Positions 26,155-39,462 of a DNA stretch of 64,000 nucleotides are shown here, in pieces; positions within the stretch are counted from its first letter, which is position 1; each line of letters opens with the position of its first letter. Origin of the DNA: Nitrospiria bacterium (GTDB lineage: Bacteria > Nitrospirota > Nitrospiria > JACQCE01); the NCBI GenBank assembly GCA_035517195.1, contig DATIZH010000027.1, forward strand, positions 67,581 through 131,580. Reading direction: 5' to 3'. Made by a program: the position numbers and the translations under genes. The notes under the pieces were generated by a model. It worked only from the letters and a program-made list of their open reading frames with translations. It was not told the DNA's origin and did no database searches.

Positions 26155-26165
26155 GCCTTCCCCCG

Positions 26166-29100
26166 CTATAATGCGCCGGAGTCTTGTGACGCCCGCTGGG
26201 CTTGACCACCGGCGCACCAGAAATCTCCGGGGCTGACGTCTTCCTGAGTGCCGTTGCTGATGGACAGCGGACGGTAAAAACAGGTCGCCATCACCACCCC
26301 GTGGCAACGGAGATTGCACCGAAACGCGTTCAGGCCATTATTCTGGAACACGCTCGAATCGCCGTCGTAATACCAGACCGGATAGGGCGCCGTCACCCCC
26401 TCGATCGATTGCTGGTACCAATCGAAACAGGCGCTGGGATCATTCACCGTGCCGTTTCCACTGAAGGACTCCTGCAAACAGGGGATGTTTCCAGAGTTGA
26501 CAGGGTATTGAACCGGTTGATGGCCGGTGTGCGTGGTGGGGCCTCCGACGGAGAAGTTGAGCAGATGGGTGTCGCTGATCCCATCCGTAATCCCGTCCTC
26601 ATCATCAGGCGGCAGGCCGGCGTTCCCGTTGCAATTGGGCATTACACAATCGGTCCCGTCCCCGTAGATGGTGTTTCTCGCCTGGGCATTGCTGTGGACG
26701 TTGTAATGGCATTCGTGGCAATAGGCGCCGGTCCGGACCAGATGATACATGTGCAGGTTCAAGTCCCACGGCGTCGTCCCCGGCTGATTCGAAGTATCCG
26801 TAATGGCGTTGGCCGTCCCGCCGCCAGCCAGCGGCTGCACAGGATTCCCGAAGAAGTTGGTCATGGAGTTGTCGGCGGCGTTGGCCCCCGTCCAGTTGGG
26901 GTCAAACGCCCTTCGGTCGTGGCACTGGAAGCAGAGCAGAAAATTATTAAAGTGATCGGGGCTGAACCCATCGTTGAAGAAACTCCGGCTGGGATTGGCG
27001 ATGTCGGTGTTGTAGCGGGCCCTGAGGAGCCGGATGTATTGCGAGCCATGCGGGCCGATCGGCTGGGCGACCCGGTCGGTTTGTCCGTTCGAGAAGTAGG
27101 GAATGCTGAAGTGCGGCGCGCGGTCCGTCGAACGGAGGCTCGACTCGGTCAGCGGGCCGGAGAAGAGCGATCCTTCCGGCGGGGAAGGCGCGTTGCCCGT
27201 CGCGCTGGGGCCGAACGCACTGGGATTGGTAAACCGGTCATAGTAATTGTTGTTATGGCAGTCGGTGCATTGGATCGTGAGGGATTGCAGGTCTGATTGG
27301 GCCGTCAACCCAAACGCTTCCTTGAGCTGGTTGAAGAGCTGCAGCGAGCCGTTGCGACCCGGCCCCACGATGGGATGGAAGGCCTTGTTGATCCCGGGAC
27401 CGAGGTAGCGTATGGTCGTCAGATCCTCAGGCGGCGTCCATCTGGGCCTGCTGATATTGCCCTCATAGCTGCCGGCGCGCGAATCCACGTCGGTCGACAC
27501 CTCATTCGACGCAGTCCCGTATCGGGAGAATTCCAGCCGCTTGTTGCTGAAGCCCTGGTAGCTCAGATTCGGATCGCTCGCCTGCGCGCCCGGCCGCGGG
27601 TTCGACCGATAGACCGTGCTGCCCGGATTGTCATCGCCATGAAACAGCGTCGGGACGGCGTTGCCGTGGCAGCGGAAACAGACCTCGTAGACATACGGTT
27701 CCCGCCCGCAGGGGCCCGGCGCGCAGCCCGTCTCCGTGGTTTCAATCCCCACCACTTTGTCATTGAAGCTGATCCCCTTCATCCCCTTGAGCCGCCCCGC
27801 CGGGTTGACCGACGGATTCGTGACTTGATGGGGATTATGACAGTCGACGCACTCGATGTGGCGGTGGGTCAGGTCATCGGGCTGGTTGATGCCCGGGCCG
27901 GCCGGATTCTCGTTGCCGATGATGGGCGGCGGGGGGTCATTGAACTCCACCCCTTCCTGAGGAAGCTTGATGAAGAAGGGCTGATGAGCCCGGAGCTGGC
28001 CGAGGTTGTCGTCTAGCTTGAGATTCATCGCGCTGCCGCAGTCGGTCTGGGCCGATGCCGCAATGGCCGCCGGCTTCGGCGGCGCGCCGGCCGGCGTCTG
28101 GTCGCAGGGCGAGTTGACACCCAGGTTATGATCCTTCGCAAACTGTGAATAGATATCGGGCGCGATCCGCTCACCGTTGGCGACAAACCCGGTGTTGGTG
28201 CCGGCCGGCAGCGCCGGCTGCAGGAATGGCGTCGGCTGGATCACGCCGGCGGTATTGCCGGGCGAGTGGCAGAGATAGCAGGTGTTTTCGATCGCATCGC
28301 CGCCACCGGGCGTATCGACCCCCTCACGGTGGATGCGGATGGCCCCCTGCGCCGTATGAGGATCGTGGCAATTCCGGCAGGAGGCCTGACCGACGTTGTG
28401 CGCGCCGTCGTAGTCATAACCCGGGTTGGCCGGATAGTTCGCCCCCGACGGATAGGTGTTGTGGAGCGCCTTGGAGACCGCATGGGTGCTGGTCGAATAC
28501 GAGTTGCCGCTTGGCAGATCCTTGTTGTGGCAGAAGAGGCAGATGAGCATCTGGCCCTGGCTGTTGGCGGACAGTCCGGTGCCCGGGCAGGGATTCGCGG
28601 CGTTCGAGCAATTCTCAATCGGCGCCCGCAGGAATTTGGGATAGGTGACCGCATGGGGATTGTGGCAGGAGACGCATTGCACCGAATCGTTGATGGCAGG
28701 GTTGTCCCCTCCGTACCGGCGCAGCGGCCCGATGCCGGCCGGATAGAGCGGCTCCTGTGACGGCCGGGGCGGAGGCGGCCCGGGGTTGTTGAATTCCGGA
28801 TCCTTCGTCGTCACCAGCGTGCTGTCAAACACGATGGAGATGGGATGGTCGTTACGCAGATTGGTGCCCAGCCGCCGCGTGTCGCCGGTCAGCTCCCCGC
28901 CGGGGCCCAACGCCATCGTCCCGCCCGGTCCGGCGCCGTTCGTGATCGGGATCTGCCCCAGGTATCCCCCCGAGCCCGGCGCGTTGAGCACCGAGCCGAT
29001 CGCGATCGTGCCGTCGTGACAGGAGAGGCAGAGCCGTGAATAGCCCGTCGGCGCGTTCGCGTTGACCTGCGCGTCGAGCGAAAAGCTCCAGGTATTGTCG

Positions 29101-29387
29101 TAGAGGGTGTAACTGGCCGTCGAAAGGTGCCGATTCCATATTGGCGCGCCGAAGCCGATTCCAGCCGTTGATGCCCCGTGCGGCGTGTGACAGAACACGC
29201 AAATCTCGCTCGTGGAGGTGGTGAAGACGTTCCGGTTGGCGGCGCTGGGAGTGGAGGAGAGATTGTGCTTGGTATTTCTCACGTCCTCCGTGATGGTCGG
29301 CAACGGAGGAGGCGGGGGGGCGGCATGAGCGCTGCTGACCCAACTTATGAGGGCAAGCGCCACGCCAACCGTCACCCGTATGACCAT
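26166..29387 (-). CDS. Large multihaem c-type cytochrome, paired-CXXCH type; 11 CXXCH sites plus one CX3CH site
   Basis: The sites are CVFCH, CLSCH, CVSCH, CLFCH, CRNCH, CYLCH, CVDCH, CFRCH, CTDCH, CFQCH and CHECH, plus CNLRCH. The N-terminal signature is TKHNLS...EICVFCHTPHG...WNR...LCLSCHDGTIA...LRNDHPIS. The signal peptide MVIRVTVGVALALISWVSSAHA starts at 29,387. The track start at 29,483 would form an ATGA overlap with the NHL gene but adds 32 non-signal residues. Confidence 0.85.
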   Translation of the reverse strand: MVIRVTVGVALALISWVSSAHAAPPPPPLPTITEDVRNTKHNLSSTPSAANRNVFTTSTSEICVFCHTPHGASTAGIGFGAPIWNRHLSTASYTLYDNTWSFSLDAQVNANAPTGYSRLCLSCHDGTIAIGSVLNAPGSGGYLGQIPITNGAGPGGTMALGPGGELTGDTRRLGTNLRNDHPISIVFDSTLVTTKDPEFNNPGPPPPRPSQEPLYPAGIGPLRRYGGDNPAINDSVQCVSCHNPHAVTYPKFLRAPIENCSNAANPCPGTGLSANSQGQMLICLFCHNKDLPSGNSYSTSTHAVSKALHNTYPSGANYPANPGYDYDGAHNVGQASCRNCHDPHTAQGAIRIHREGVDTPGGGDAIENTCYLCHSPGNTAGVIQPTPFLQPALPAGTNTGFVANGERIAPDIYSQFAKDHNLGVNSPCDQTPAGAPPKPAAIAASAQTDCGSAMNLKLDDNLGQLRAHQPFFIKLPQEGVEFNDPPPPIIGNENPAGPGINQPDDLTHRHIECVDCHNPHQVTNPSVNPAGRLKGMKGISFNDKVVGIETTETGCAPGPCGREPYVYEVCFRCHGNAVPTLFHGDDNPGSTVYRSNPRPGAQASDPNLSYQGFSNKRLEFSRYGTASNEVSTDVDSRAGSYEGNISRPRWTPPEDLTTIRYLGPGINKAFHPIVGPGRNGSLQLFNQLKEAFGLTAQSDLQSLTIQCTDCHNNNYYDRFTNPSAFGPSATGNAPSPPEGSLFSGPLTESSLRSTDRAPHFSIPYFSNGQTDRVAQPIGPHGSQYIRLLRARYNTDIANPSRSFFNDGFSPDHFNNFLLCFQCHDRRAFDPNWTGANAADNSMTNFFGNPVQPLAGGGTANAITDTSNQPGTTPWDLNLHMYHLVRTGAYCHECHYNVHSNAQARNTIYGDGTDCVMPNCNGNAGLPPDDEDGITDGISDTHLLNFSVGGPTTHTGHQPVQYPVNSGNIPCLQESFSGNGTVNDPSACFDWYQQSIEGVTAPYPVWYYDGDSSVFQNNGLNAFRCNLRCHGVVMATCFYRPLSISNGTQEDVSPGDFWCAGGQAQRASQDSGAL

Positions 29388-29479
29388 CAATGAAGACCCG
29401 CCCCGTCGAGACAGACCGTCCCGTGATTGCGTCGACGAATCATAACCAACTTGCCCTCCGCTGTCAATCAGAATCCCCG

Positions 29480-30559
29480 TCATTGCTCAGCCGATACCGA
29501 GAGGAGTTGAAAGATTTGCACCCGTTGATTGTAGGTGTCCGCCACATAAATGCGGTTGTGTTGATCGATGGCGATCCCGGTCGGCAGCCAGAAACGGCCA
29601 GCGACCGATCCCCCGCCGCCCACATGCAGGAGCAGCTGCCCTTGTTGATCGAAGATCTGGACCACGTCGTAGAGGCCGTCAACCACGTAAATGTCGCCCT
29701 CCGTGTCCACGGCCACGCCCTTCGGTTTGGAGAAGGTGCCGATGGTGGTCCCCAACCGGCCGAACATCCGGAGAAACTTCCCCTGCCGGTCGAACAATTG
29801 GATGCGAAAATTCAATGAATCGGTGACATAGATCGTTCCGTTGCGGTCGACCGCCACCTGGCTGGGGAAGTTAAATTCACCCGGACCGCCGCCGCGCTTG
29901 CCGATGGTCATCACCTTACCGCCGTCGGGTCCATACACGACGATTTTGTGGCCGCCGACGTCCGCGGCATAGAGCCGGCCGTCGGGACCAACGGCGATGC
30001 CGGCCACCCGCGTATAATCCCCCGGCTGACCGATCCGGCCGAGCAATCGTCCATTCGCGTCAAAGAGGAAGATGTCATTCAACGTCGAATCGGACACGTA
30101 GATACGGCCCCGGTCGTCGGCAGCGACACCGACCGGCGCGATCAGTCGGGCCGTGCCGATCAGGTGGAAGATCTGATGATAGTCCTTCTTGTTCAGGTCA
30201 AACACGTGCACAACCTGCTGGCCGGTGTCCGTGACGAGGATCCGGCCACGGCCGTCGGAAAACACGGCACTGGGCCGCACCAAGGGGATCGGCGCCTTGC
30301 CGATGATCCGTCTGAACAACCGGCCGAACAGGGAGGATTTTTCCCCCGCATCCGCCGAGGTGGCCAGTTGTCCCACCAATTCGATCCGGGGCGGATCGGG
30401 CGGCTTCGGCCAGACCAGCGGGGGCGACGCGGATGAAGCCGCGCCAGAGGCGCACCCGCCTAACAAGACGATCGACAGCACGATCCCCCCCGCCCTGACG
30501 GACCACGCGCCGTCGCTCATCGCGCGGATCCCATGCCGAGGGCTCCCCATCCGAATCAC
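29480..30559 (-). CDS. NHL-repeat six-bladed beta-propeller lipoprotein
   Basis: Lipobox LLGGC is present. The N-terminal motif is WPKPPDPPRIELVG. NHL-type blades recur, for example GRILVTDTGQQVVHVFD, GRIYVSDSTLNDIFLFD, GRLYAADVGGHKIVVY, GTIYVTDSLNFRIQLFD, GDIYVVDGLYDVVQIFD and NRIYVADTYNQRVQIF. The GTG start forms a GTGA overlap with the upstream stop. Confidence 0.85.
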   Translation of the reverse strand: MIRMGSPRHGIRAMSDGAWSVRAGGIVLSIVLLGGCASGAASSASPPLVWPKPPDPPRIELVGQLATSADAGEKSSLFGRLFRRIIGKAPIPLVRPSAVFSDGRGRILVTDTGQQVVHVFDLNKKDYHQIFHLIGTARLIAPVGVAADDRGRIYVSDSTLNDIFLFDANGRLLGRIGQPGDYTRVAGIAVGPDGRLYAADVGGHKIVVYGPDGGKVMTIGKRGGGPGEFNFPSQVAVDRNGTIYVTDSLNFRIQLFDRQGKFLRMFGRLGTTIGTFSKPKGVAVDTEGDIYVVDGLYDVVQIFDQQGQLLLHVGGGGSVAGRFWLPTGIAIDQHNRIYVADTYNQRVQIFQLLSVSAEQ

Positions 30560-32457
30560 AGTGAAAACTGCCTCGTCAGCCGGAAATAGAGATTGTGAGA
30601 CACGGTCGAGCTCAGTTCGTTGAAGTAGTTAAATTCATACTGGAGGTTGAACATGACCAGTCCGATCTGGTACGTCCCGTTCACATTGGCGGTCGCAATG
30701 GTCATGTCGGGCCGGCCAGGATCCGTCATCAGGCGATCCTCATACCGGCCGTCGACAGTAATCTGCAGATCCGGCAGCATCGGCGGCACGGTCCAGTTCA
30801 CGCTGGTAAAGAAGGAGTTGTAATCATCGCCCTGGGCCGTGGTGATATGCGACGAGAGGCCCCCGCCGACCCCCCACCCCCGCCATCCATAGAGGAGATC
30901 CGCGCCCACGTCAATCGTTTGGATATTATCGACGCCTCCTGAAATCGCCGTGTCCCCCGCGCCCGCGTGCACCGTGAGCGTATCCCCGCGTAACAGCAGT
31001 TCACGGAAATAAGAGCTCGTCGCATCCGTCCGGATCATGTTGGTGAATTCAGTCGTCCCATCGCCGCTGAGTTGGTCGTTATAGTAGCCGCTATAGGTGC
31101 CCGTGACCGTGATGTATTGCGTCTTGGTGTTGGTCGCTTGCATCATCCAGAAGGTGTTGACATTGCTCTGGTTGGAGCCCGACGCGATGGTGTTGTTCAT
31201 CGCGACCCCCCCGCTCACGTTGATCCGGACCAGCTCATAGAGTTGAAAATAGGTGACGGACGACGCGAAATTATGATAGAGCGAGGTGGATTTCGTGTGC
31301 GGTCCCGACGTCGTGGCATCGGTGGTGGTGTTGGTCAGACCCGCCGTATCGCTGAAGGCGGCGTTCAGGTTCAGGGTCGGGCGGTAGAGGACGAGGACGC
31401 TGCCGTACCCCGAGGCGACCTGGGAGTAGTCAAGATCGAGGTACGAACCGCGACCCGACACCGTGATGTCGAACTGCGGCGTCGGGCGATAGAAGACGTC
31501 GAACCCGCCGATATGCCGGTCATTCGTATCCCTGGTAAAGTCGTACGTGAAGTTGCTGTTCAGCTTCAACGACGGGCGGTAGAACACGGTAAACCCCGCC
31601 GTCGACACATTGGCCACGATGCCCGGGACGACCGGCGTCTGACTGGAGAGGCCGGTGGTGTAGGAGGCGCGCACATTGCTGCTGATTTCGGGCGTCCACT
31701 GGCTGTCCGCCGTCATCCGCCCCCCCACGCTCATGTCGGTCCCCGAATTGTTAAATTGCTGCACGCCCGACATCGAAAGGTTCCAGGTCAGGACGGTGTT
31801 CTTAATGATGTATCGGTAGGGATATTGGTCCGTGGCGGTCAGGCTGCCGCCGAATGTCCGTGACGTGTTGTCGCACGAGGGCGGGGACAAGGGGGTGCAG
31901 CTGTTGGTTTCCACGGTCGAATAATAGACGTTCAGGTGAAGCTGCGGCAGTTTCCAGACGCGTGGCAGGTCCCACACGAGATTGTAGATCGACACGGTGA
32001 CCTTGCCGCTGGGCACCGGCGCGGATAAGGTATTGGATTCCATCTCCTGGGTCGTCCGTTGCGCGCTCAGGGCCAACGGCATCACTCGAGGGAAGAAGGT
32101 CAGCGATCCGAAGTAGTTGTAGACCTGGGTGTTCGACTCCAGGTCACCATAGCGATCGTCGTTGCTGAACGTGAAATTCAGTTGGTAGAAGCCCAGCGCT
32201 TCACGGAAGATCGCCCCATTGGAGCCCACCGTCACGAGCTCACGCAAATCGTTGTACTGGGAGTCCGTGCCGCCGGTGGTGCTGACCTCGATTAGCCGAT
32301 ACTCCAGCGTCGCCTCGCCGGTCAGATCGATCAGTCTGGCTTCGGCGCGGGACGCCGGCCAGAGCAGCCCCATGAGCCCCATGACAACGACCCACCCCCA
32401 GGGGCCGTTTCCGTTCCCTCGCACTGTTGGACCCCGTCTCTGTCCCGTCGCCCGCAT
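30556..32457 (-). CDS. Predicted large outer-membrane beta-barrel protein (633 aa)
   Basis: The signal peptide reads ...WVVVMGLMGLLWPASRAEA. Composition is Tyr/Thr/Ser/Asn/Gly-rich throughout, with alternating hydrophobic patterns. The aromatic-rich C-terminus reads NLYFRLTRQFSL. I did not recognise a named family. Confidence 0.55.
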   Translation of the reverse strand: MRATGQRRGPTVRGNGNGPWGWVVVMGLMGLLWPASRAEARLIDLTGEATLEYRLIEVSTTGGTDSQYNDLRELVTVGSNGAIFREALGFYQLNFTFSNDDRYGDLESNTQVYNYFGSLTFFPRVMPLALSAQRTTQEMESNTLSAPVPSGKVTVSIYNLVWDLPRVWKLPQLHLNVYYSTVETNSCTPLSPPSCDNTSRTFGGSLTATDQYPYRYIIKNTVLTWNLSMSGVQQFNNSGTDMSVGGRMTADSQWTPEISSNVRASYTTGLSSQTPVVPGIVANVSTAGFTVFYRPSLKLNSNFTYDFTRDTNDRHIGGFDVFYRPTPQFDITVSGRGSYLDLDYSQVASGYGSVLVLYRPTLNLNAAFSDTAGLTNTTTDATTSGPHTKSTSLYHNFASSVTYFQLYELVRINVSGGVAMNNTIASGSNQSNVNTFWMMQATNTKTQYITVTGTYSGYYNDQLSGDGTTEFTNMIRTDATSSYFRELLLRGDTLTVHAGAGDTAISGGVDNIQTIDVGADLLYGWRGWGVGGGLSSHITTAQGDDYNSFFTSVNWTVPPMLPDLQITVDGRYEDRLMTDPGRPDMTIATANVNGTYQIGLVMFNLQYEFNYFNELSSTVSHNLYFRLTRQFSL

Positions 32458-32543
32458 GGGATGGTCATCAGACGATCGCGCCCTCTCATGCCTCCGTCAC
32501 TCCCCGATGAGAGGTCGATTACCACTTGTTCAACAGACAGCCC

Positions 32544-33638
32544 TTACGGCGTCGCGGACGAGGGGGACACCATGGTGATCCTGGCCCGCGACCGAAGCGT
32601 CGTGATCCACTCCCGGTACCGCTCACGGCGCCGGGCCTCCAACAACTCCTGGCGGAACAGCGCCTTGTTCAATTCGTCATAGGTTTGTTGCCTGGCAGGC
32701 CGCGTCTCTTCGACCTTGGCGATGTAGTAGCCGTACAGCGTCCGGACCGGCTCGGTGATCTGCCCCGGATGGAGGTGCTCCACTGCGTGTTCCACATCGG
32801 ACAATCCTAATTGTCCGTGGTGAACCATTCCCGTGTCGCCGCCCTTATTCTTGGTATCGGCATCGCCGGAGTATTGCCGCGCCAGCGCGGCGAAGTCTTC
32901 CCCCCCGAGCGCCCGGCTCCGGTACGCCTCGGCCCGCTGTTTCGCCTGTTCCCACTCGTCGGGTGTCGCCGACGGATCGACCGACACCAACAGAAGGCGG
33001 AGGCGGTATTGCAGGGGAATTTTGAATTTGTCCAGGTGCTCGCGATAGTAGGCGGCCAGATCGTCATCCGTCACCGTCACCTTCTCGTTGACCTCGCGGT
33101 CGATCACCTGCTGGATCAACACGGCCCGCTCCATCCGCCGCCGGAACTGCTGCTCCGTCAACTGTCGCTGTGCCAGCGCGTTCCGGTAGTCCTCCTCCGT
33201 CGAAAACCGGCTCCGCTGCTTCGCCAGCTCGGCCTCAACCTGTTTCTGATCCGCGGCCATCTGCAACCGCGCCGCCTCTTGCAGGATTAATTCATCGGTG
33301 ACCATCTGGTCCAGCAACTCAAACGCGCGCTGTCGCAGCCGGCCGGGCGAAATCGTCCCGTGGCCGGTGACATTCGGAATCTGCTCCCGTACCATCCGAT
33401 CCAGTTGTCCGAAGGTGATCTTGACCCCGTTGACGTCGGCCATCGTCGTATCCGCCGTCACGGTCTCCGGCGTCACACTATGGGGATGACCGGGGGATTG
33501 ACCGGGACCCGAAGGGGCTTGAGCGGGTGGCTCAGATGGCGGGGGGTCGACTGCGGAGGCGGGTCTCGCCCCCGCCACCACTCCGTCGATTAGAAGCAGC
33601 ACTGCCAGGATCACGCGGAGTTCGTGTCGTCCCGTCAT
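32544..33638 (-). CDS. SurA/PpiC-type (parvulin) peptidyl-prolyl isomerase, periplasmic chaperone-like
   Basis: A signal peptide is present. A SurA_N-like helical region reads VNGVKITFGQLDRMV... The C-terminal rotamase domain reads FAALARQYSGDADTKNKGGDTGMVHHGQL...HLHPGQITEPVRTLYGYYIAKV. Confidence 0.75.
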   Translation of the reverse strand: MTGRHELRVILAVLLLIDGVVAGARPASAVDPPPSEPPAQAPSGPGQSPGHPHSVTPETVTADTTMADVNGVKITFGQLDRMVREQIPNVTGHGTISPGRLRQRAFELLDQMVTDELILQEAARLQMAADQKQVEAELAKQRSRFSTEEDYRNALAQRQLTEQQFRRRMERAVLIQQVIDREVNEKVTVTDDDLAAYYREHLDKFKIPLQYRLRLLLVSVDPSATPDEWEQAKQRAEAYRSRALGGEDFAALARQYSGDADTKNKGGDTGMVHHGQLGLSDVEHAVEHLHPGQITEPVRTLYGYYIAKVEETRPARQQTYDELNKALFRQELLEARRRERYREWITTLRSRARITMVSPSSATP

Positions 33639-33732
33639 GCTTCAGTCCCACGACGACTGAGTGGCGGGGCCGGATGACCTCATCGCAACACAGGGATCTG
33701 TCCGATCATCCGGAAAATGCGTGGCTGTGATG

Positions 33733-35727
33733 TTATGCACCGGCATCCCTCAACTGCACGGCCTGCCGTCGGTAACGGCGCGCCTCATCCGGCCGACCCA
33801 TCTGGTCGGCGACGAGGGCCAACGCCGATGCCGCCTGGGCCAGGGTCGGTTTATAGCGGAGCGCCTCCCGAAAATAGCGTTCCGCTTGCTCCAATCGTCG
33901 TTGTCTGACGGCAATTAGCCCAAGATTATACAGAGTTTGAAAATCACTGTAAAGCAATTGGTAGCGTTCATAGGCAGCCCGGCTGCCTTCCAGATTGCCC
34001 TGCTGATACTCGGCCACACCCAGATAGAGGGTCAGGTCCGGCTGGAAGGGCTCCCAACGGAGACCGTCCTTGATGATGGGTATCGCTTCCGCCCAATGCC
34101 GATCAGTCATCAACAGCCACGCCTCCCGCTGATAGGCGCCGGCAATCACTGGCCGGACAGCCTGGAAGATCAGCAGTCCGATGCCGATCAGTGCCGCTCC
34201 CCCCAGACTCCGTCGCGAGACCTTCGATGCCAGCCAAGCGGGAAGCGGAGCGATCCTTTGCCTCCCTCCGGCGGCCACAATCGTTGCCAATCCCAGCCAG
34301 AAAAGCAGGAGGGCCGCCGGCTGATGCAAAGGGAAATCGACCGCTGCGTGGGTCAGCAAGGCGGCCATGCCTGCCAATAGGCCGCAGAGCAAAGAAGGAG
34401 AAACTGGCTGGACACTATCGAACACGGACTTCTGGGCTGATGTTGTCGGTCCCACACCAATAGAGTTTATTCTGCGTAGCATCCCTAAGCCTCCCACAAA
34501 AAAATAAATTATGATTGCTACAAATAGAGATAATCCCACAATCCCGTTTTCAGCAGCCAGCTGGAGCCAGTCATTATGGGCATGCCCGGCCTCGTCATAA
34601 CTATGCTCGCTGGCCGGATAGACCGTTGCGGGATTCGGAAGCCGATCAAACACCAAGGCACGGTAGGGTTGATATTGCGCCCCAAATGTTCCTGTCCCGA
34701 TTCCAATGAATGGATGCGCGGCCACCATCTCCGCCGTCGTCTCCCACATCAACACCCGGCCCTTGACGCTGGGATCATCCCAAGAACGGCTGACGAGCTT
34801 ATGCCAATCCGCCCCCAGTGTCGGCACACGCCAGAACAGCAGGACAAGGAAGAGCACAATGAGACCTGCTCCTCCGGCACCGGCCAGGAAGATCTTTTTC
34901 TTTGACCATCGAAACGAGATCCCCCAGATCACCCATAGCGCCAGTACCCCGACAACGGCCGCCGCCAACCCACCTTTGCTGCGGGTCAGAAGCAACGCGG
35001 CGATCGAAAAGGCGACCGAGACCCAGAGCAGAATGGCTTCAGACCTATACAAGGAAACGGAGAGGCCTTTGAGCGCCGTCTCGCCGGCGGAATCGGTCGA
35101 CCGGCGGCGCCGGTTGACGGCCAGCGCGATCGTGACGGGGAGAAAAAACGCCAGGACCGCCGCCAGGTAATTGGCGTTCCCGATCGTTGAATAAATCTCG
35201 ACTTTGGACAGCAACGTCCGGCCGGGAAGGAATCGCACACCGTGTTCAAAATCCAGACCGAACCACTGCGCGACAGCCACCAATGCCACGACGCCGCTGA
35301 TGAACGACACGCCCAGCCAGAACCGCTCAAGATCATGTCGTCGTTCTGCGCAAAGGGGCACCAATACCAGCAGAAAGAGCAGATGAAGCGCAAACAACTG
35401 GGCGCGAACGGTCAACAGACTGTAGGGCGAGACCAGCAGCGACACCCACCCCCAACCCCAGAATGCCCATGCCATCCCCGCCAGCGGATGCCAGACGATC
35501 CGGATGGTCCGCTCGTTCAGCCAGCGCATCAGAACGACCCCGCCGAGCACGGCGATGCCGATCTTGATGAGGGCTTCCTTGGGGGTGTCAAACGACTCGT
35601 AGCTGGACCAGGTAAATCCGAGCAGCACGCTGCCGACCCATCCGGTCAGCAGCCAGAGCGGCGTCATGCGCGTAGCTTCACCCACCATCAGCCCCTGAGA
35701 CAAAAAGCAAGGGGGCCAATCCGCCAC
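33733..35727 (-). CDS. Wzy_C (O-antigen-ligase / O-oligosaccharyltransferase-like) polytopic membrane protein with C-terminal TPR repeats
   Basis: There are about 10-12 hydrophobic segments. The Wzy_C loop motif is EHSYDEAGHAHNDWLQLAAENGIVG. The C-terminal TPR-like region reads YLGVAEYQQGNLEGSRAAYERY...YNLGLIAVRQRRLEQAERYFREALRYKP. The start is GTG at 35,727; alternatives are ATG 35,688 and ATG 35,667. Confidence 0.75.
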   Translation of the reverse strand: MADWPPCFLSQGLMVGEATRMTPLWLLTGWVGSVLLGFTWSSYESFDTPKEALIKIGIAVLGGVVLMRWLNERTIRIVWHPLAGMAWAFWGWGWVSLLVSPYSLLTVRAQLFALHLLFLLVLVPLCAERRHDLERFWLGVSFISGVVALVAVAQWFGLDFEHGVRFLPGRTLLSKVEIYSTIGNANYLAAVLAFFLPVTIALAVNRRRRSTDSAGETALKGLSVSLYRSEAILLWVSVAFSIAALLLTRSKGGLAAAVVGVLALWVIWGISFRWSKKKIFLAGAGGAGLIVLFLVLLFWRVPTLGADWHKLVSRSWDDPSVKGRVLMWETTAEMVAAHPFIGIGTGTFGAQYQPYRALVFDRLPNPATVYPASEHSYDEAGHAHNDWLQLAAENGIVGLSLFVAIIIYFFVGGLGMLRRINSIGVGPTTSAQKSVFDSVQPVSPSLLCGLLAGMAALLTHAAVDFPLHQPAALLLFWLGLATIVAAGGRQRIAPLPAWLASKVSRRSLGGAALIGIGLLIFQAVRPVIAGAYQREAWLLMTDRHWAEAIPIIKDGLRWEPFQPDLTLYLGVAEYQQGNLEGSRAAYERYQLLYSDFQTLYNLGLIAVRQRRLEQAERYFREALRYKPTLAQAASALALVADQMGRPDEARRYRRQAVQLRDAGA

Positions 35728-35760
35728 TGCGGATCGGCCCCCTGCGTCCTTGACACCCTC

Positions 35761-37017
35761 TTACTTTTGGTGACAGCTAAGGCAGATCGCGCTCGCCTGG
35801 TTCGGGGCATGCGACCAGTAGGTCCCATTCACGATCCCGGCCGACAAGGCCGTTTGGTTGCCTCCGCCGGAGGGAAGCCCGACGCCGTTGTCAGCGAACA
35901 CGCCTGCATTATTCACATCGCTCGGAAGACGAAGGAAGAGCGTTCTCGGGGTGTGAGGATTGTGGCAGGAGGCGCATTCGATATACGCGCTGGTATTGCT
36001 TCCCGTTGCCACCGTTCCCCCGTCTGAGGCGTACGCCCGGATTCGGTCCCGCTTATCCTGGGGATAGATGCCGCCTCCGCCCTGATCCCGTTTCAAATAG
36101 AGCAGCTTCCCGTTCGGATCCGCCTCGGCGCCGGCGATCACCTGGCCAAATTGCGGATCACACCCGACCGCCACTGTTCCGCAAGGAATCTGGAAGCTGA
36201 TCGGATGGTCGTCGCGCAGATCGGTGCCGAGATTGGGGAATGGCTGGGCGCCAAAACCTCCAGTCAGGTCCTCCAATGTATCATTGGTATAGGTGGCACC
36301 GGCAAAGGGTCCTTGTCCCTGTATCGTGGTCGCCCCGGGACGGTTGCCTTCCTTAAAGGTCCGATTTCCATCCACGGCCCCGCCTGGCGTCGCACCGCCA
36401 TAGGCTCCAAACATCGCATTGGACAGCGTCGTGTCACCAGGGACCGGAGTGCCCAATGGCCCCGCTTGCGAATTCCCCGGCACATACCCGCCCGAACCTT
36501 GAAGGTTGATCAACGCATCAAAGGCGATCGTTCCATCATGGCAGGAGAGACAGGCCAAGGAGACCCCCTTGACTTTGCCGTTCAACGTCGTTGCCGAGGA
36601 AGCTTCAAACGACGGGGAGCCCGCTTGGTCGTAGGTTTGATAAGCCGTATCAGTGTTGATTTTGCGGTTCCACAACGGAGGGAATCCGGTATTCAGCAAT
36701 CCGGCATACCCCGCCCCGTGGGGCGTGTGGCAGTAGACGCACACTTCACTGCCGCCCTTGAGCGTGCTGGCGCTGCCGAAAAGGATATTGGGATTTTGAG
36801 CCAGATTGTGCTTGGTGGTGGAGACCGCCTCTGCGGGAAAGTGATCGGCATAGGCCAGGCTGCCCGCCACCACCCACATCAGCAGCCCACCCAACAGACC
36901 AACTCCGAACCGGATGGCACAGTGTCTGAGCCTCTGTATCACGTCACCCCTCCCTCCACGCACGTGCATGCGCCCTTGAATCATCCCACGAGAAAAGTGC
37001 AACCCAACTTTGTTCAT
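35761..37017 (-). CDS. Tetrahaem c-type cytochrome, paired-CXXCH type (418 aa)
   Basis: The sites are CVYCH, CLSCH, CASCH and CLSCH. The shared signature is TTKHNLAQ...VCVYCHTPHG...WNR...CLSCHDGTIAF...LRDDHPISF...CASCHNPH. The protein ends in CLSCHQK followed by the stop. Its signal peptide ends AGSLAYA. Confidence 0.85.
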   Translation of the reverse strand: MNKVGLHFSRGMIQGRMHVRGGRGDVIQRLRHCAIRFGVGLLGGLLMWVVAGSLAYADHFPAEAVSTTKHNLAQNPNILFGSASTLKGGSEVCVYCHTPHGAGYAGLLNTGFPPLWNRKINTDTAYQTYDQAGSPSFEASSATTLNGKVKGVSLACLSCHDGTIAFDALINLQGSGGYVPGNSQAGPLGTPVPGDTTLSNAMFGAYGGATPGGAVDGNRTFKEGNRPGATTIQGQGPFAGATYTNDTLEDLTGGFGAQPFPNLGTDLRDDHPISFQIPCGTVAVGCDPQFGQVIAGAEADPNGKLLYLKRDQGGGGIYPQDKRDRIRAYASDGGTVATGSNTSAYIECASCHNPHTPRTLFLRLPSDVNNAGVFADNGVGLPSGGGNQTALSAGIVNGTYWSHAPNQASAICLSCHQK

Positions 37018-37157
37018 TCGACCGATATTGCCGCTCTCAACGCTCCTTCATCCCCTCAACACGCGGATCTCATTCTCTGACTTGATAAGAATAGGTAACT
37101 GGGCCGGCAGCGTAGCACAATCAACCGGCCGTGTCCAGCGTTTTTTCCACGAACGGT

Positions 37158-38369
37158 TTACCCAAAATAGGGGATTGTCCTGTACAGGAGGCTAGATTTG
37201 TGTCCGTCAGGCGCCGCGTTGTGATCAACCGGTGGTTGAGGCGGTGCTGGGGCCGGACTGGTCACGGATTCTTTCACGGCATCAGGTTGTTGAATATATT
37301 GGAAGATCTGAACCTTTCTATTGTACTGATCCGCCACATAAATTTTGTCTTTTCCATCCACGGCCAATCCCGCCGGCAGCCAAAATTCACCTGGGCCCGT
37401 CCCCAGTCGGCCAAAGTAGAGCAACAGCCGGCCTTCAAGATCAAACAGTTGCACATTATTGAATGCCGCATCCACGACGTAGATATGATCCGCGCTGTCA
37501 AACCCGATCCCCTTGGGTTTGGAGAAATGGCCCAACGCCGTGCCGACGCCGCCAAATTTCCTGACGAATTTTCCATCCGGATCAAAGAGCTGGACTCTGA
37601 AGTTAAAACTGTCCATGACCGCCACGGTTCCCGACAGTCGGGAGACGGCGATGTTGGTGGGATAATTGAACTGTCCGTCCTCCGCTCCGCGGCCTCCGAA
37701 CTCGAACAGAAAATTGCCCTCCATGTCAAACACCGAGACCTTGTGTTTTTGAGTGTCGACGATATAGATGCGACCCAGCTTTTCGTTGACCGCGATGCCG
37801 ATCGGCCGCTCAAACCGCCCCCGTTCGCCGATGCCGAGCAAAAAATTTCCCTGCCGGTCATAGACGACAGCGCGTTTCTGGTAGCTGTCGGTGACGTAAA
37901 TTCTTCCCTGCGAATCGGTGGTCACGCCCAACGGCTTGCTGAGCACGCCCGGGCCTGACAACCCCAGGAGCGAGAATTTTCCCTGCGCCGGGTCAAACAC
38001 CATGATTTTTCCCCAGGCACTGTCCGCGACCAGCAACCGGCCCGACGGATCGACCGCAACGCCGTAGGGTTTTCCCATTCTTGCCGGCGGTTCCATCCCA
38101 ACGAGCTGATCCCAGATCCAATGCAGAAGCGAGAACTTCTGGACATCGGACTCCGAGGCGATGCTGCCGACATACCTGATTCTCGGCAAATCCGGAGGCG
38201 GAGGCCAGACCACATCTTCCTTCTGCTTCTTGGTGGTGGCGCAGCCCGCGACCGCACCCATCACCATGGCCAGCGTGATGACGACCACCACGGGCGCAGG
38301 CCACCGCGCGGGAACAGACCGGCAGCGCTCCGCGCGCCCCCCTTGCATCCCTCTCTGGCAATCGGACAT
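37158..38369 (-). CDS. NHL-repeat six-bladed beta-propeller lipoprotein (paralogue)
   Basis: Lipobox AVAGC is present. The N-terminal motif is WPPPPDLPRIRYVG. NHL blades include GRLLVADSAWGKIMVFD, GRIYVTDSYQKRAVVYD, GRIYIVDTQKHKVSVFD, VAVMDSFNFRVQLFD, HIYVVDAAFNNVQLFD and KIYVADQYNRKVQIF. ATG 38,369 begins 8 nt after the upstream TAA. The track start at 38,402 would overlap by 25 nt. Confidence 0.85.
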   Translation of the reverse strand: MSDCQRGMQGGRAERCRSVPARWPAPVVVVITLAMVMGAVAGCATTKKQKEDVVWPPPPDLPRIRYVGSIASESDVQKFSLLHWIWDQLVGMEPPARMGKPYGVAVDPSGRLLVADSAWGKIMVFDPAQGKFSLLGLSGPGVLSKPLGVTTDSQGRIYVTDSYQKRAVVYDRQGNFLLGIGERGRFERPIGIAVNEKLGRIYIVDTQKHKVSVFDMEGNFLFEFGGRGAEDGQFNYPTNIAVSRLSGTVAVMDSFNFRVQLFDPDGKFVRKFGGVGTALGHFSKPKGIGFDSADHIYVVDAAFNNVQLFDLEGRLLLYFGRLGTGPGEFWLPAGLAVDGKDKIYVADQYNRKVQIFQYIQQPDAVKESVTSPAPAPPQPPVDHNAAPDGHKSSLLYRTIPYFG

Positions 38370-38377
38370 CGGCGGTG

Positions 38378-39256
38378 TTACTTCTGATGGCAGGTCAGGC
38401 ATAATGCGCTGTTGCGATTGGAGGCGCGGAGAAAGGGATCGCGCCCTTCGATATTGCCTTCGTCAGGATTGTGCGGGTCATGGCACGAGGCGCATTGCAC
38501 TTTGTCCCCCGCAAAGGTTTGCACGCCGTTGGGGAACTCTCGACCGCCGTCTGATTTCATGATCATCGGCTGGTTAAAACCGGGGTCCTGGGCGTACGTC
38601 GGAAACGGCATGGAGATGGGGTGATCGTCCCGCAGATCGCGCGTCAGATACCGGATGGTCGCATCATGCGCGCCGCCGATGCCGCCATAGGCGCCTGAGA
38701 TCCGGTTGTGACATTTCCCGCACGTGTCGCTGCCGATGGAACCTTCGGCGTCCAACCGGTAATGCGTTCCAGAATCGCTCCAATCGTGGAATTTCGGCTT
38801 GTTCGCCACCGCATCCACCGCGACCGTGCCGTCGTGGCAGGACAGGCAGGCCAATGACACACCGTCGGGCCCGTTGGACAACGCATTGGGCGTGGCTTTT
38901 GAATCCAGGCTCACGCTGTTGAAGACCTGGTATTCTGCCGGACCGCCGCCGCCCCCTGCCGCACCGTCCGTCGGATTCTGCCGATTCCACATCGGGGCCA
39001 GGTTACTGCCATTGTGCGGCGTATGGCAGTAAATGCACGCCTCGCGATAATCGTTGAAGGTGGCGCCGGTCATGGGACCTGTTTCAGTCCCGTATCCACG
39101 CATATTGAAAAAGCTCAGGTCGTGGCGGGAGCCGAGGATGGAATTGCCCCTGGCCGTCACGGCCATCATGACGACCGACGCGCAGATGGCGACGGCGACA
39201 AAAACCGCCGATCGCCTTGCGCGACGGGGATGCTGTGCCCCCCACCCCATGGGCAT
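38378..39256 (-). CDS. Pentahaem c-type cytochrome, paired-CXXCH type (292 aa)
   Basis: The sites are CIYCH, CLSCH, CGKCH, CASCH and CLTCH. The shared signature is RHDLS...CIYCHTPHN...WNR...CLSCHDGTVAV...LRDDHPISM...CASCHDPH. The protein ends in CLTCHQK followed by the stop. A signal peptide is present, and GGGAGGTGG precedes the start. Confidence 0.85.
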   Translation of the reverse strand: MPMGWGAQHPRRARRSAVFVAVAICASVVMMAVTARGNSILGSRHDLSFFNMRGYGTETGPMTGATFNDYREACIYCHTPHNGSNLAPMWNRQNPTDGAAGGGGGPAEYQVFNSVSLDSKATPNALSNGPDGVSLACLSCHDGTVAVDAVANKPKFHDWSDSGTHYRLDAEGSIGSDTCGKCHNRISGAYGGIGGAHDATIRYLTRDLRDDHPISMPFPTYAQDPGFNQPMIMKSDGGREFPNGVQTFAGDKVQCASCHDPHNPDEGNIEGRDPFLRASNRNSALCLTCHQK

Positions 39257-39450: not shown

Positions 39451-39462
39451 CAGAAGCGTGGC

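Follow-up and report, generated by a model that had tools for sequence, protein, structure and literature searches.

A Nitrospirota gene cluster related to the OmcE, Uet, and Occ extracellular cytochrome systems

What kind of system do closely spaced multihaem cytochrome, beta-propeller, and beta-barrel genes encode in an uncultured Nitrospiria bacterium? We analyzed a 64,000-nucleotide stretch of its DNA (the window), in which a first-pass annotation had described ten minus-strand open reading frames (ORFs) as a candidate new envelope electron transfer or cytochrome assembly system unlike the MtrCAB and OmaB/OmbB/OmcB layouts, offering as a lead that they could be a remote, differently wired relative of the genes that export and assemble omcS/omcE filaments. 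Our analysis indicates that the region from 24.2 to 43.1 kb probably encodes an extracellular cytochrome system of the OmcE/Uet/Occ type in a Nitrospirota form, with filament and export steps that we infer.

Extent and gene content of the cluster

All ten ORFs (10/10) lay where the annotation had placed them, and its domain calls agreed with Pfam and NCBIfam searches (NHL twice, SurA_N plus Rotamase, Wzy_C plus TPR, FGE-sulfatase twice, and Paired_CXXCH). The conserved module exceeds this set, running from ~24195 to 43121, and also includes a Reg_prop lipoprotein gene (39463-40776) and a divergent unit (40958-43121) of two trihaem c7 cytochromes and a second Reg_prop lipoprotein. Gene order is kept in six more independent loci (L001 and L085-L089), down to ~45-50% protein identity, which is far above chance expectation. 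Five Sec-exported c-type cytochromes are encoded by the region, i.e., the two c7 trihaem proteins and the pentahaem (c5), tetrahaem (c4), and undecahaem (c11) OmcE-family proteins. Signal peptides and lipoboxes were read at the N termini of the cluster proteins. The features are as follows.

24195..24216, minus: terminator-like hairpin at the cluster end (9-bp stem, 7 GC pairs; folded)
24371..25279, minus: FGE-fold lipoprotein 2, lipobox LSSC (Pfam FGE-sulfatase, E 2e-53)
25276..26154, minus: FGE-fold protein 1 (Pfam FGE-sulfatase, E 1e-57)
26166..29387, minus: undecahaem (possibly dodecahaem) cytochrome c11, 1073 aa from ATG 29387 (11 CXXCH plus CxxxCH)
29439..29467, minus: sigma-70-type promoter TTGACA-17-TATGAT of the undecahaem/FGE unit (11/12 consensus match)
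29480..30559, minus: NHL six-bladed propeller lipoprotein 2 (NHL2), lipobox LGGC (Pfam NHL, E 2.5e-34)
30556..32457, minus: predicted 633-aa outer-membrane beta-barrel, putative UetC equivalent and member of the omcE-cluster barrel family (AF2, profile)
32544..33638, minus: periplasmic SurA_N plus parvulin PPIase chaperone, UetB equivalent (Rotamase, E 9e-20; SurA_N_3, E 1e-14)
33733..35688, minus: polytopic membrane protein of the Wzy_C (O-antigen-ligase) family, 651 aa, with TPR at the C terminus (Pfam Wzy_C, E 5e-21; TPR also called)
35710..35743, minus: intrinsic terminator or attenuator directly 3' of the tetrahaem gene (15-bp GC-rich stem plus T-tract)
35761..36942, minus: tetrahaem OmcE-family cytochrome c4, 393 aa from GTG 36942 (4 CXXCH)
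~37070..37110, minus: promoter-like TGGACA-17-TACGCT upstream of the tetrahaem gene (sequence read; conserved block)
37158..38369, minus: NHL six-bladed propeller lipoprotein 1 (NHL1), lipobox VAGC, then VWPPPPDLPRIRYVG (Pfam NHL, E 5e-31)
38378..39256, minus: pentahaem OmcE-family cytochrome c5, 292 aa (5 CXXCH)
39463..40776, minus: Reg_prop beta-propeller lipoprotein A, lipobox-like TAGGC (Pfam Reg_prop, E 4e-18); start uncertain
40958..41323, plus: trihaem c7-type cytochrome a, 121 aa (3 CXXCH)
41326..41940, plus: trihaem c7-type cytochrome b, ~205 aa (3 CXXCH; Cytochrome_C7, E 4e-10); start uncertain, ORF opening at 41215
41958..43121, plus: Reg_prop beta-propeller lipoprotein B, lipobox LLSC (Pfam Reg_prop, E 2e-23)

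A Cytochrome_C7 gene (120-125 aa) occupies the cytochrome a position in L001 and L085-L089, and these loci also share the position of Reg_prop lipoprotein B as the final gene of the divergent unit. Cytochrome b has homologues at 105-123 bits in both Uet-type and Occ-type loci. In every related locus, the gene for Reg_prop lipoprotein A precedes the pentahaem gene.

OmcE-family cytochromes and transcription signals

As judged by alignment, c5, c4, and c11 are all homologous to OmcE, the filament subunit of PDB 7TFS and 9YUQ, whose four CXXCH motifs and four distal histidines are invariant in all three. The sequences bear out the omcS/omcE lead, as they do the haem counts of 5, 4, and 11 CXXCH motifs, to which one CxxxCH in the large cytochrome is added. 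The c5 protein (7TFS, E 3.6e-19; 9YUQ, E 9e-18) aligns as an OmcE core with one extra haem site, CGKCH, inserted; it fits the five-haem OmcE-like class predicted as a possible new nanowire family (bioRxiv 10.1101/2025.10.22.684050). The c4 protein (7TFS, E 7e-10) has an OmcE-like C terminus, CxxCHxK; its 393-aa length is also that of the ENA gene call, and its ribosome-binding site and start are conserved among related loci. Loop insertions in the alignment make c4 nearly twice the size of OmcE and could block OmcE-type packing. We consider c4 a candidate main secreted or polymerising subunit, equivalent to UetA.

An OmcE-like four-haem module (7TFS, E 3.8e-17, residues 67-289 in the numbering of the full ORF from ATG 29483) forms the N terminus of c11, followed by seven CXXCH motifs and an invariant C-terminal CxxxCH. 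All 12 motifs are invariant across 81 relatives; relatives number >2146, and among the best 120, all those that are organism-named belong to Nitrospirota. The protein is colinear with the UetJ-like protein of L011 (39% identity, E 8e-52) and the OccP-like protein of L075 (29% over ~640 aa, E 2e-43), and by these similarities it is the equivalent of UetJ and OccP. AF2 gave no usable model of c11.

The five junction sequences in the annotation were all as claimed: an 8-nt gap from the c5 stop to the NHL1 ATG at 38369, a GTGA overlap of the barrel stop and NHL2 start (30556-30559), an ATGA at 29480-29483 between the NHL2 end and the full c11 ORF, an 11-nt gap from the c11 stop to the GTG of FGE-fold protein 1 at 26154, and an ATGA overlap of the two FGE-fold genes (25276-25279). 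The ATGA at 29480-29483 is probably not the real c11 start, because a conserved promoter, TTGACA-17-TA(T/C)(G/A/C)AT in 6/6 loci examined, sits between the NHL2 stop and ATG 29387, which is probably the true start. The TGGACA-17-TACGCT block is kept in the window, L001, L087, L088, and L089 and partly in L086; the ~155-nt leader between this element and the tetrahaem gene matched no Rfam family. The strong terminator hairpin 3' of the tetrahaem gene (fold, -42 kcal/mol; z, -4.9) occurs in 7/7 related loci, with one pair altered on both sides. The conserved internal terminator and promoters contradict the proposed single transcription unit with stoichiometric co-expression, and on these signals the cluster is more than a single simple transcription unit. 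In seven loci the tetrahaem gene keeps its monocistronic layout, which suits a subunit required in surplus better than a conduit part at a 1:1 ratio.

Outer-membrane proteins and accessory genes

The two NHL proteins had been proposed as paralogues, and indeed are 42% identical (E 2e-83) with WPxPPDxPRI in both. The OmcE-like fold occurs in at least 568 loci; we retrieved 80 genome loci, a set outside which the G. sulfurreducens PCA locus falls, and an NHL homologue adjoins the OmcE-like genes in 74 to 76 of these 80, in many phyla. Homologues of the PPIase, which carries a signal peptide at its N terminus, were found in L011, L020, L073, L075, and L082 (92-168 bits).

The 633-aa protein matched no Pfam or NCBIfam family. 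Its earlier designation as a transmembrane barrel agrees with the AF2 model, a 30-strand, all-beta barrel (pLDDT 75), and with its Foldseek neighbors, which were outer-membrane barrels only; the best TM-scores among the listed PDB matches were 0.39 for MtrB and 0.37 for the FimD usher. A profile built solely from database representatives matched the large ORF adjacent to an OmcE-like gene in 22 of 80 genome loci before iteration and 49 of 80 after, as well as the close relatives L001/L002, with zero matches among ~240 other large ORFs without CXXCH. Profile E values were 1.5e-12 (L011), 8e-14 (L075), 1e-10 (L012), and 5.7e-5 (L003), the last being the value on which homology with the Geobacter barrel rests. 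Homology with the UetC-like barrel is likewise profile based, pairwise comparison of the two giving no similarity.

The Wzy_C-TPR protein has ~21 close relatives, several of them on contigs equal in length to those of barrel hits, and its gene lies within the cluster at every related locus examined; it was not found in the other 80 OmcE-type loci, and a search of solved structures found no match to its membrane part. Aligned with human SUMF1, FGE-fold protein 1 lacks Cys at both catalytic positions, and FGE-fold lipoprotein 2 shows sub-threshold similarity to PorK/GldK in NCBIfam; by sequence, both are without the catalytic cysteines of FGE. Three sets of accessory proteins (Wzy_C-TPR, the two FGE-fold proteins, and the Reg_prop lipoproteins) are specific to a small Nitrospirota subclade and do not belong to the uet, occ, or minimal omcE clusters as described.

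Function and comparison with known systems

The cluster most likely serves to export and anchor extracellular OmcE-like cytochromes and to exchange electrons across the outer membrane; the flow could be uptake, with Fe(II), Mn(II), or minerals as the source, or reduction. In the proposed mechanism, (i) haem would be inserted into the cytochromes in the periplasm; (ii) the PPIase would keep the loop-rich OmcE-like subunits export competent; (iii) the barrel and two NHL lipoproteins would form an outer-membrane secretion/anchoring platform; (iv) c4 would be made in surplus from its own promoter-terminator unit, would form the bulk of the exported material, and would probably polymerise head-to-tail via the conserved histidine-to-haem link of OmcE filaments; and (v) the periplasmic-type c7 trihaems would act as shuttles, and c11, starting with its OmcE-like module, would link them to the outside as a cell-proximal or terminal conduit. 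Going by family name only, the Wzy_C-TPR protein would most likely glycosylate the exported subunit or what surrounds it, in line with the glycosylation of G. sulfurreducens OmcE. The FGE-fold pair and Reg_prop lipoproteins may be scaffolds.

A possible but distinctly less probable explanation is a porin-cytochrome conduit without a filament, in which c11 (or c4) would lie in or on the 30-strand barrel, like MtrA/MtrC with MtrB, the NHL lipoproteins would stabilise the complex, and the OmcE-like proteins would be monomeric surface or periplasmic cytochromes. Eddie et al. put forward such a model for Uet, with UetC as a 28-strand pore with a cytochrome inside and UetJ as an extracellular haem wire (bioRxiv 10.1101/2022.05.06.490989), and the top TM-score of MtrB and the large c4 insertions are consistent with it; however, MtrCAB and Pcc have an MtrA-like decahaem, and none was found in the cluster by CXXCH count, Pfam, or NCBIfam. 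The annotation was therefore correct on the minor point that this is not MtrCAB; nor is it Pcc. The OmcE-like fold is very common, and the omcE-cluster study itself allows that many tetrahaems of this kind may form no nanowires (bioRxiv 10.1101/2025.10.22.684050), but the histidine set for OmcE inter-subunit haem ligation is wholly conserved here, and the tetrahaem gene's own promoter and terminator also speak against a conduit. The same study takes a nearby barrel and propeller lipoprotein as the criterion for nanowire-capable homologues, and the window has both.

A periplasmic multihaem redox enzyme (e.g., a nitrite or sulfur-compound oxidoreductase), with c11 catalytic and the barrel moving substrate in or out, is very unlikely: c11 resembles NrfA only weakly and locally (c11 residues 350-409, E 0.003), over no more than ~60 residues surrounding two haem motifs, motif counts revealed no CXXCK or other catalytic-haem signature in the cluster cytochromes, and, although the unusual CxxxCH site is invariant in the c11 family, c11 is similar most strongly, and over the longest stretches, to the subunit of OmcE filaments and to UetJ/OccP-type extracellular cytochromes. 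Least probable of all is a categorically new envelope electron transfer or cytochrome assembly system unrelated to known ones, which the subclade-specific genes and the barrel's lack of a family match would favor but which homology and synteny refute for the core, because every core component has same-order homologues in Uet-type/Occ-type loci and the cytochromes are OmcE homologues; it survives for the accessory genes only.

The preferred reading, an OmcE/Uet/Occ-type system, has several described counterparts. The minimal omcE cluster comprises OmcE with two other multihaem cytochromes, a pair of beta-propeller lipoproteins, and one large beta-barrel, with glycosylation genes and a porin model also reported, and Nitrospirota are already named among the phyla with such clusters (bioRxiv 10.1101/2025.10.22.684050). 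The parts list and backbone order, taken by the annotation as candidate new, have been published twice, for uetABCDEFGHIJ of Tenderiales, differentially expressed on cathodes (bioRxiv 10.1101/2022.05.06.490989), and for occA-S of 'Ca. Dechloromonas occultata', whose proteins were detected during Mn(III) reduction (bioRxiv 10.1101/695007). Common to uet, occ, and the window is the order tetrahaem, PPIase, barrel, NHL, and undecahaem, plus c7 trihaems; the NHL, PPIase, barrel, c7, and 11-haem proteins have same-order homologues in clusters of the Uet type (Thiohalomonadaceae) and the Occ type (Rhodocyclaceae). The published uetA-J order recurs in L011; L073 and L075, each with a duplicated cytochrome-NHL pair, are intermediates; and the cluster's barrel and NHL proteins match those adjoining omcE in Geobacter. 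By homology and gene order, the cluster is a Nitrospirota variant of the system already known as the omcE cluster, Uet, and Occ.

Gene order and transcription architecture of the conserved module

An ORF check confirmed all ten minus-strand ORFs called in the first-pass annotation, together with their coordinates, and gene order was found to be kept in six further independent metagenomic or MAG loci (L001, L084/L085, L086, L087, L088, and L089) down to ~45 to 50% protein identity. One strand of this conserved module (~24195-43121) carries two trihaem c7-type cytochrome genes and a Reg_prop gene. The opposite strand carries genes for a Reg_prop protein, a pentahaem cytochrome, an NHL propeller lipoprotein (NHL1), a tetrahaem cytochrome, a Wzy_C-TPR protein, a PPIase, a barrel (30556-32457, minus strand), a second NHL lipoprotein (NHL2), and a large (undecahaem) cytochrome; both Reg_prop proteins, which are propeller lipoproteins, belong to the module. 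FGE-fold genes (FGE1 and FGE2 in the window) follow the large cytochrome gene where the contig continues (two in L001 and at least one in L084). The named relatives are Nitrospirota, Nitrospiria or Leptospirillia MAGs. The right flank is composed of housekeeping genes (hslVU, xerC, a GIDA-family gene, topA, dprA, the RNase G gene, rodA, the PBP2 gene, mreBC, and, as presumed from its position, mreD), and the module is therefore seated in the core chromosome. The other flank encodes PD40, FG-GAP, and FGE-fold proteins. The surrounding features are as follows.

~17850 to window base 1, minus strand: giant open frame of at least 5,900 codons, without a stop, running past the window edge
17995-18095, minus strand: c-di-GMP-I riboswitch aptamer (49.9 bits against a gathering score of 35), preceding the giant frame
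18357-19175: third FGE-fold protein, between the giant gene and the cluster
19165-21030: FG-GAP/ASPIC-UnbV protein, between the giant gene and the cluster
21022-23020, opposite strand: two PD40 beta-propeller proteins, between the giant gene and the cluster
45669-45753: tRNA gene, beyond the divergent unit that holds the c7 genes

The giant frame, which encodes eight PATR autotransporter-passenger repeats and two Laminin_G_3 domains, looks like a c-di-GMP-controlled giant surface adhesin gene ~6 kb from the cytochrome cluster, and the plus-strand ORFs listed in 1-18000 are probably its shadows. In L001, PD40/Tricorn-type propellers likewise lie downstream of the cluster.

The cluster had originally been read as a single operon. 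The junction sequences agreed with the gaps and overlaps on which that annotation reported:

pentahaem stop codon to ATG 38369: 8-nt gap
30556-30559: GTGA overlap of the barrel and NHL2 genes
29480-29483: ATGA at the NHL2 stop codon
large cytochrome gene to FGE1 GTG 26154: 11-nt gap
25276-25279: ATGA at the FGE1/FGE2 junction

The same sequences show that the FGE1/FGE2 pair is translationally coupled to the large cytochrome gene. The single-operon reading itself did not hold, as a conserved terminator and internal promoters lie within the cluster. A canonical intrinsic terminator (-42 kcal/mol; z -4.9), with 11 GC pairs in its 15-bp stem and TGCTTTTTGT after it, is located 18 nt past the tetrahaem stop codon. 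Its hairpin and T-tract are present in all seven loci (7/7), and its stem is almost constant, with one pair altered on both sides, while the adjoining proteins diverge to ~50%. Upstream of the tetrahaem gene there is a conserved AAAAAAnGCTGGACAC...TGCTACGCT block (TGGACA-17-TACGCT), followed by a poorly conserved leader of ~155 nt and then by a conserved RBS and start; the cytochrome gene leaders gave no Rfam match. A sigma-54 interpretation of this upstream element was dropped because its GG-N10-GC spacing does not fit. A second promoter-like element (TTGACA-17-TATGAT) lies between the NHL2 stop codon and ATG 29387, in the same place in 6/6 loci examined, and ATG 29387, which gives a normal signal peptide, is the probable true start of the large cytochrome. 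The 206 nt upstream of the pentahaem gene (39257-39462) contain two conserved promoter-like blocks, CTTGACTT...TATCTAT and (T/C)TGACA-16-TAT(A/G)(C/G)T, and a conserved hairpin-forming stretch ahead of the RBS; these elements hint at regulated expression. Tight coupling is real only within three sub-blocks, namely, pentahaem-NHL1, barrel-NHL2, and large cytochrome-FGE1-FGE2. For the tetrahaem gene, a promoter and terminator of its own inside an assembly cluster would fit a major structural subunit produced in excess.

OmcE-family cytochromes, barrel, propellers, and accessory proteins

Translation confirmed the predicted haem counts (five, four, and eleven CXXCH motifs in the 292-, 418-, and 1,105-aa ORFs, respectively) and revealed one extra CxxxCH close to the C terminus of the 1,105-aa ORF. 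Apart from these three genes, haem-rich ORFs in the window are confined to the two c7-type trihaem genes just upstream. In phmmer searches of the PDB, the pentahaem, tetrahaem, and large cytochromes matched the G. sulfurreducens OmcE filament subunit (7TFS) with E values of 3.6e-19, 7e-10, and 3.8e-17, respectively. All three also matched 9YUQ, which we regard as the structure of the D. soudanensis OmcE bundles from a 2025 preprint (bioRxiv 10.1101/2025.10.22.684050), and no OmcS (hexahaem subunit) entry appeared among their PDB matches at E values up to 10. In the alignment with both solved OmcE subunits, the four CXXCH motifs are invariant in every Cys and His, as are four further His residues, located in TKH(D/N)L, TPH, (D/N)DHP, and three residues past motif 3; OmcE H29, H56, H147, and H206 are among the invariant columns. 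The pentahaem and tetrahaem proteins (27% identity; E 1e-22) end in CxxCHxK, as does OmcE, and the pentahaem protein corresponds to the OmcE core with one inserted CGKCH.

The large cytochrome consists of an N-terminal OmcE-like module followed by seven additional CXXCH motifs. Its eleven CXXCH motifs and the C-terminal CxxxCH are all invariant across 81 aligned relatives, which makes a twelfth haem plausible, and members of this "undecahaem" family may therefore bind twelve haems. The CxxxCH site reads FRCNLRCHG (C1024/C1028/H1029 in the 1,073-aa form). An AF2 model from the 81-sequence alignment had a mean pLDDT of 53.7, with values of <50 in the OmcE-like module, and was set aside.

Pfam and NCBIfam searches agreed with the first-pass assignments of two NHL propellers, a SurA_N plus parvulin PPIase, a Wzy_C plus TPR membrane protein, and two FGE-sulfatase-fold proteins; the 633-aa barrel had no match in either database. 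The earlier prediction that this protein is a transmembrane barrel was borne out by its AF2 model, which was built from an 18-sequence alignment of the only homologues recovered by a word-index search. The model is all-beta, with 30 antiparallel strands and a mean pLDDT of 75, and the PDB matches listed by Foldseek were solely outer-membrane barrels (LptD, TonB-dependent receptors, the FimD usher, and MtrB), the top TM-scores among them being 0.39 (MtrB) and 0.37 (FimD). The strand content and these neighbours speak against the alternative that the protein is not a transmembrane barrel. By a simple geometric estimate, a 30-strand barrel would be ~53 to 60 Å wide (Cα to Cα), which would in principle be roomy enough for a folded small cytochrome.

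NHL1 and NHL2 are 42% identical (E 2e-83), and both carry lipoboxes. Both also contain an N-terminal WPxPPxxPRI, as first noted; its reading as a sign of paralogy was not sustained, as the motif is a signature of the whole family. In cytochrome-linked NHL lipoproteins of several phyla, (L/V)VWPxPPxxPRIxY(V/I) occurs just past the lipobox Cys. The strict pattern was detected in 48 of 137 NHL ORFs (e.g., in loci L009, L020, L034, L050, L052, L063, and L073), and this motif could serve in docking to the barrel or the cytochrome.

Several accessory genes are particular to this cluster. The Wzy_C-TPR protein has only ~21 close relatives, several of them encoded on contigs equal in length to those of barrel matches, and its gene occupies an identical cluster position in every related locus fetched; no homologue was found in the 80 other OmcE-type loci described below, and a search of solved structures matched the TPR part alone. 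A UDP-glucose/GDP-mannose dehydrogenase gene (43118-44446) lies directly past the divergent unit and is a possible supplier of sugar precursors for the Wzy_C-TPR protein. FGE1, aligned to human SUMF1 (2AFY), has no Cys at either catalytic position (which we take to be C336/C341), and both catalytic cysteines are likewise absent from the C-terminal region of FGE2, as read from its sequence. One member of the pair is a lipoprotein. Their nearest nonenzymatic analogues appear to be the PorK/GldK ring lipoproteins, through a subthreshold NCBIfam match. No cupredoxin domain was found by Pfam in any ORF of the cluster.

OmcE-like loci across genomes and possible modes of assembly

Scanning species-representative genomes with the OmcE alignment yielded at least 568 OmcE-like loci in many phyla, of which 80 were kept; these exclude the G. 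sulfurreducens PCA omcE locus, and the best Geobacter locus listed is 52% identical to OmcE. Searching the window proteins against all ORFs of the 80 loci identified NHL homologues (at least 100 bits) in 74, c7 homologues in 10, and PPIase homologues in 7. Four loci are informative for gene order:

L011 (Thiohalomonadaceae): order exactly that published for uet
L075 (Rhodocyclaceae): tetrahaem, NHL, tetrahaem, PPIase, 799-aa ORF, c7 genes, NHL, large cytochrome
L073 (Nitrospirae): pentahaem, three c7, NHL, tetrahaem, PPIase, barrel, NHL, 10-haem protein
L003 (Geobacter): 10-haem protein, 8-haem protein, NHL, OmcE, 809-aa ORF, glycosyltransferase

Because its gene order matches the published one, L011 was used as a Uet-type proxy for the Tenderia Uet proteins. 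The gene map of L073 is intermediate. In L003, from Geobacter sp. H2geo, a family-2 glycosyltransferase gene (13364-14569) lies directly 3' of the omcE-cluster barrel gene, in agreement with the statement that freshwater Geobacter omcE clusters continue into glycosylation genes (bioRxiv 10.1101/2025.10.22.684050).

The large cytochrome is colinear with the UetJ-position protein of L011 (39% identity over 365 residues; E 8e-52) and with the OccP-position protein of L075 (29% over ~640 residues; E 2e-43), and a window NHL protein matched the OmcE-adjacent NHL gene product of L003 with 227 bits. The window barrel has diverged too far from the UetC-position barrel of L011 to be linked to it by pairwise BLASTP, which gave no significant match. 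A barrel profile built solely from 71 long representatives out of a full-database search matched, without iteration, the UetC-position ORF of L011 (E 1.5e-12), the Occ-type ORF of L075 (E 8e-14), and the OmcE-adjacent barrels of L012 (Geobacteraceae; E 1.2e-10) and L003 (E 5.7e-5), and it matched none of ~240 other large ORFs without CXXCH. After iteration, a barrel of the same profile family was present in 49 of the 80 loci. The barrel's tie to Geobacter is weak but position specific. By these locus maps, large-cytochrome alignments, and barrel-profile matches, the window cluster is a member of the Uet/Occ branch of a broad family of clusters in which an OmcE-like cytochrome is combined with an NHL lipoprotein and a barrel. 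A "Thermoplasmata archaeon" MAG locus (L063; JBHHWA010000004.1) also contains an OmcE-like gene, two NHL lipoprotein genes, and a same-family barrel gene. Outside Nitrospirota, its match to the C-terminal part of the large cytochrome was the best (126 bits). Since the bin is labelled archaeal, the presence of an outer-membrane barrel points to misbinning.

Export signals and lipoboxes are present in the cluster proteins. In the mechanism that we propose, the PPIase would chaperone loop-rich OmcE-like subunits, and the barrel and NHL lipoproteins would form an outer-membrane secretion and anchoring platform. The tetrahaem protein would be the abundant exported subunit and may polymerise like OmcE, the large cytochrome would connect periplasmic c7 shuttles to the cell exterior, and the Wzy_C-TPR protein would put on a glycan. 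Of what a putative extracellular filament joined by intersubunit His-haem ligation would need, the ligand set is conserved. The chief alternative, still plausible, is a porin-cytochrome conduit that forms no filament, as put forward for Uet, which has been linked to electron uptake on cathodes (bioRxiv 10.1101/2022.05.06.490989); Occ has been linked to Mn(III) reduction (bioRxiv 10.1101/695007).

A more elaborate form of the proposed filament, which we consider improbable, is a chaperone-usher-like heteropolymeric cytochrome fibre with the tetrahaem protein as the major subunit, the pentahaem protein as a minor subunit, the large cytochrome as cap or root, and the Wzy_C-TPR protein as the glycosylating enzyme. 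In such a fibre, the minor subunit, with a solvent-exposed haem, would be a tip or contact point; the OmcE-like N-terminal module of the large cytochrome would cap the fibre or root it in the 30-strand barrel, and the other seven to eight haems would carry electrons across the outer membrane to the c7 shuttles. If this were true, the cluster would contain subunits for initiation, termination, and anchoring, for which no evident candidates are said to exist in Geobacter operons (bioRxiv 10.1101/2025.10.22.684050).

Comparison with known cytochrome clusters

The window cluster resembles MtrCAB/Pcc systems in that a large outer-membrane barrel is encoded with multihaem cytochromes. It differs from them in having neither an MtrA-like periplasmic decahaem protein nor an MtrC-like cytochrome, in the 30 rather than 26 strands of the barrel, and in the presence of propeller lipoproteins and a PPIase. 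Within the cluster, the earlier exclusion of MtrCAB was upheld: no MtrA/OmaB-like periplasmic decahaem (or octahaem) protein is encoded there, and NCBIfam decahaem models scored only 21 to 31 bits against cutoffs of at least 192 bits.

Shen et al. are said to have described, in 2025, osc protein types that include a PPIase-type chaperone (OscH), channel-like secretion proteins (OscEFG), and a propeller-like protein (OscD). Compared by description only, the two clusters are alike in logic, a filament cytochrome gene being flanked by genes for chaperone, channel-like, and propeller-like proteins, and they differ in that the window cytochromes belong to the OmcE family and not to the OmcS family. 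The roles of OscD to OscH in the G. sulfurreducens osc (omcS-companion) cluster are those quoted in PMC13194489. The clusters treated in a 2026 peat preprint on "conserved EET machinery" are from Acidobacteriota and Verrucomicrobiota, and the present one is not described there.

Five phyla, Nitrospirota among them, have been reported to encode OmcE homologues close to a porin and a propeller (bioRxiv 10.1101/2025.10.22.684050). The window shares with the omcE cluster of Geobacter/Desulfuromonas the OmcE-family cytochromes with an identical haem-ligand pattern and C terminus, an NHL propeller lipoprotein gene adjoining the subunit gene, a large barrel of the same profile family directly downstream, further multihaem cytochromes, and a glycan-related gene beside the subunit gene (glycosyltransferases in Geobacter and Wzy_C-TPR here). 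In contrast, the window subunit candidates are 393 and 292 aa long, compared with ~210 mature residues in OmcE, and one of them carries five haems; as additional cytochromes, the window encodes OmcE paralogues and c7 trihaems, and L003 encodes 10- and 8-haem Paired_CXXCH proteins; the PPIase is absent from the Geobacter loci examined; and the barrel has 633 aa and 30 strands here, compared with ~755 to 809 aa in Geobacter.

The occA-S cluster of "Ca. Dechloromonas occultata" (19 genes, 10 of them for cytochromes), whose products have been detected under Mn(III)-reducing conditions, encodes the undecahaem OccP, which is extracellular, along with 6-NHL proteins and a PPIase (bioRxiv 10.1101/695007). 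Both clusters bring together an undecahaem cytochrome of ~900 to 1,100 aa, 6-NHL proteins, a PPIase, and numerous small cytochromes, and the doubled cytochrome-NHL arrangement of the window recurs in the Rhodocyclaceae locus L075, whereas the accessory sets differ.

The uetABCDEFGHIJ cluster of Tenderiales encodes a tetrahaem cytochrome, a PPIase, a 28-strand barrel, three c7 trihaems, a cupredoxin, two NHL proteins, and an undecahaem cytochrome (bioRxiv 10.1101/2022.05.06.490989); it has also been reported from some Gallionella, and "Ca. Tenderia electrophaga" is a Uet host (bioRxiv 10.1101/2022.05.06.490989; PMC9900912). In the window, the backbone follows the same order (tetrahaem, PPIase, barrel, NHL, undecahaem) and c7 trihaems are likewise encoded, and its proteins match those of L011 (PPIase, 119 bits; NHL, 194 to 216 bits; c7, 105 to 110 bits). 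The UetA-UetB-UetC block is colinear except for the Wzy_C-TPR gene between the tetrahaem and PPIase genes, and a UetJ-type undecahaem with 11 CXXCH motifs (39% identity to the UetJ-position protein of L011) is present. Unlike Uet, the window has no run of three c7 genes and the cupredoxin gene uetF between the barrel and NHL genes, its c7 genes being two and located in the divergent unit (40958-41940). At the cluster head, one of its NHL genes forms a pair with an additional pentahaem OmcE-like gene; genes for Wzy_C-TPR, the FGE-fold pair, and the Reg_prop proteins come on top; in place of adjacent ccsAB, nrfG, and batABD, the flanks hold genes for PD40, FG-GAP, and FGE-fold proteins, UDP-glucose dehydrogenase, and housekeeping functions; and the host belongs to Nitrospirota rather than Pseudomonadota.

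The first-pass suggestion of a distant omcS/omcE-type filament export set was right for omcE, as the cytochromes are of the OmcE family and the NHL and barrel families are common to the omcE cluster. Its claim of a new system was wrong: the parts list has already been described for the omcE, Uet, and Occ clusters, and the locus alone does not amount to a system of a new kind. The secretion, initiation, termination, and anchoring of cytochrome nanowires have been studied almost solely in Geobacter. To this field, the present variant contributes three OmcE paralogues with differing haem numbers in one compact cluster, a putative major-subunit gene with its own promoter and terminator, and candidates for the major, minor, and anchoring subunits and for a glycosylation enzyme. 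At the level of sequence homology, the comparison shows that Uet and Occ have a homologous core in common, that their NHL lipoprotein and barrel families are also those of the omcE nanowire cluster, and that the Uet/Occ core reaches into Nitrospirota, a phylum with an important part in the groundwater cycles of nitrogen, iron, and manganese. The locus links the Uet, Occ, and omcE clusters across phyla.
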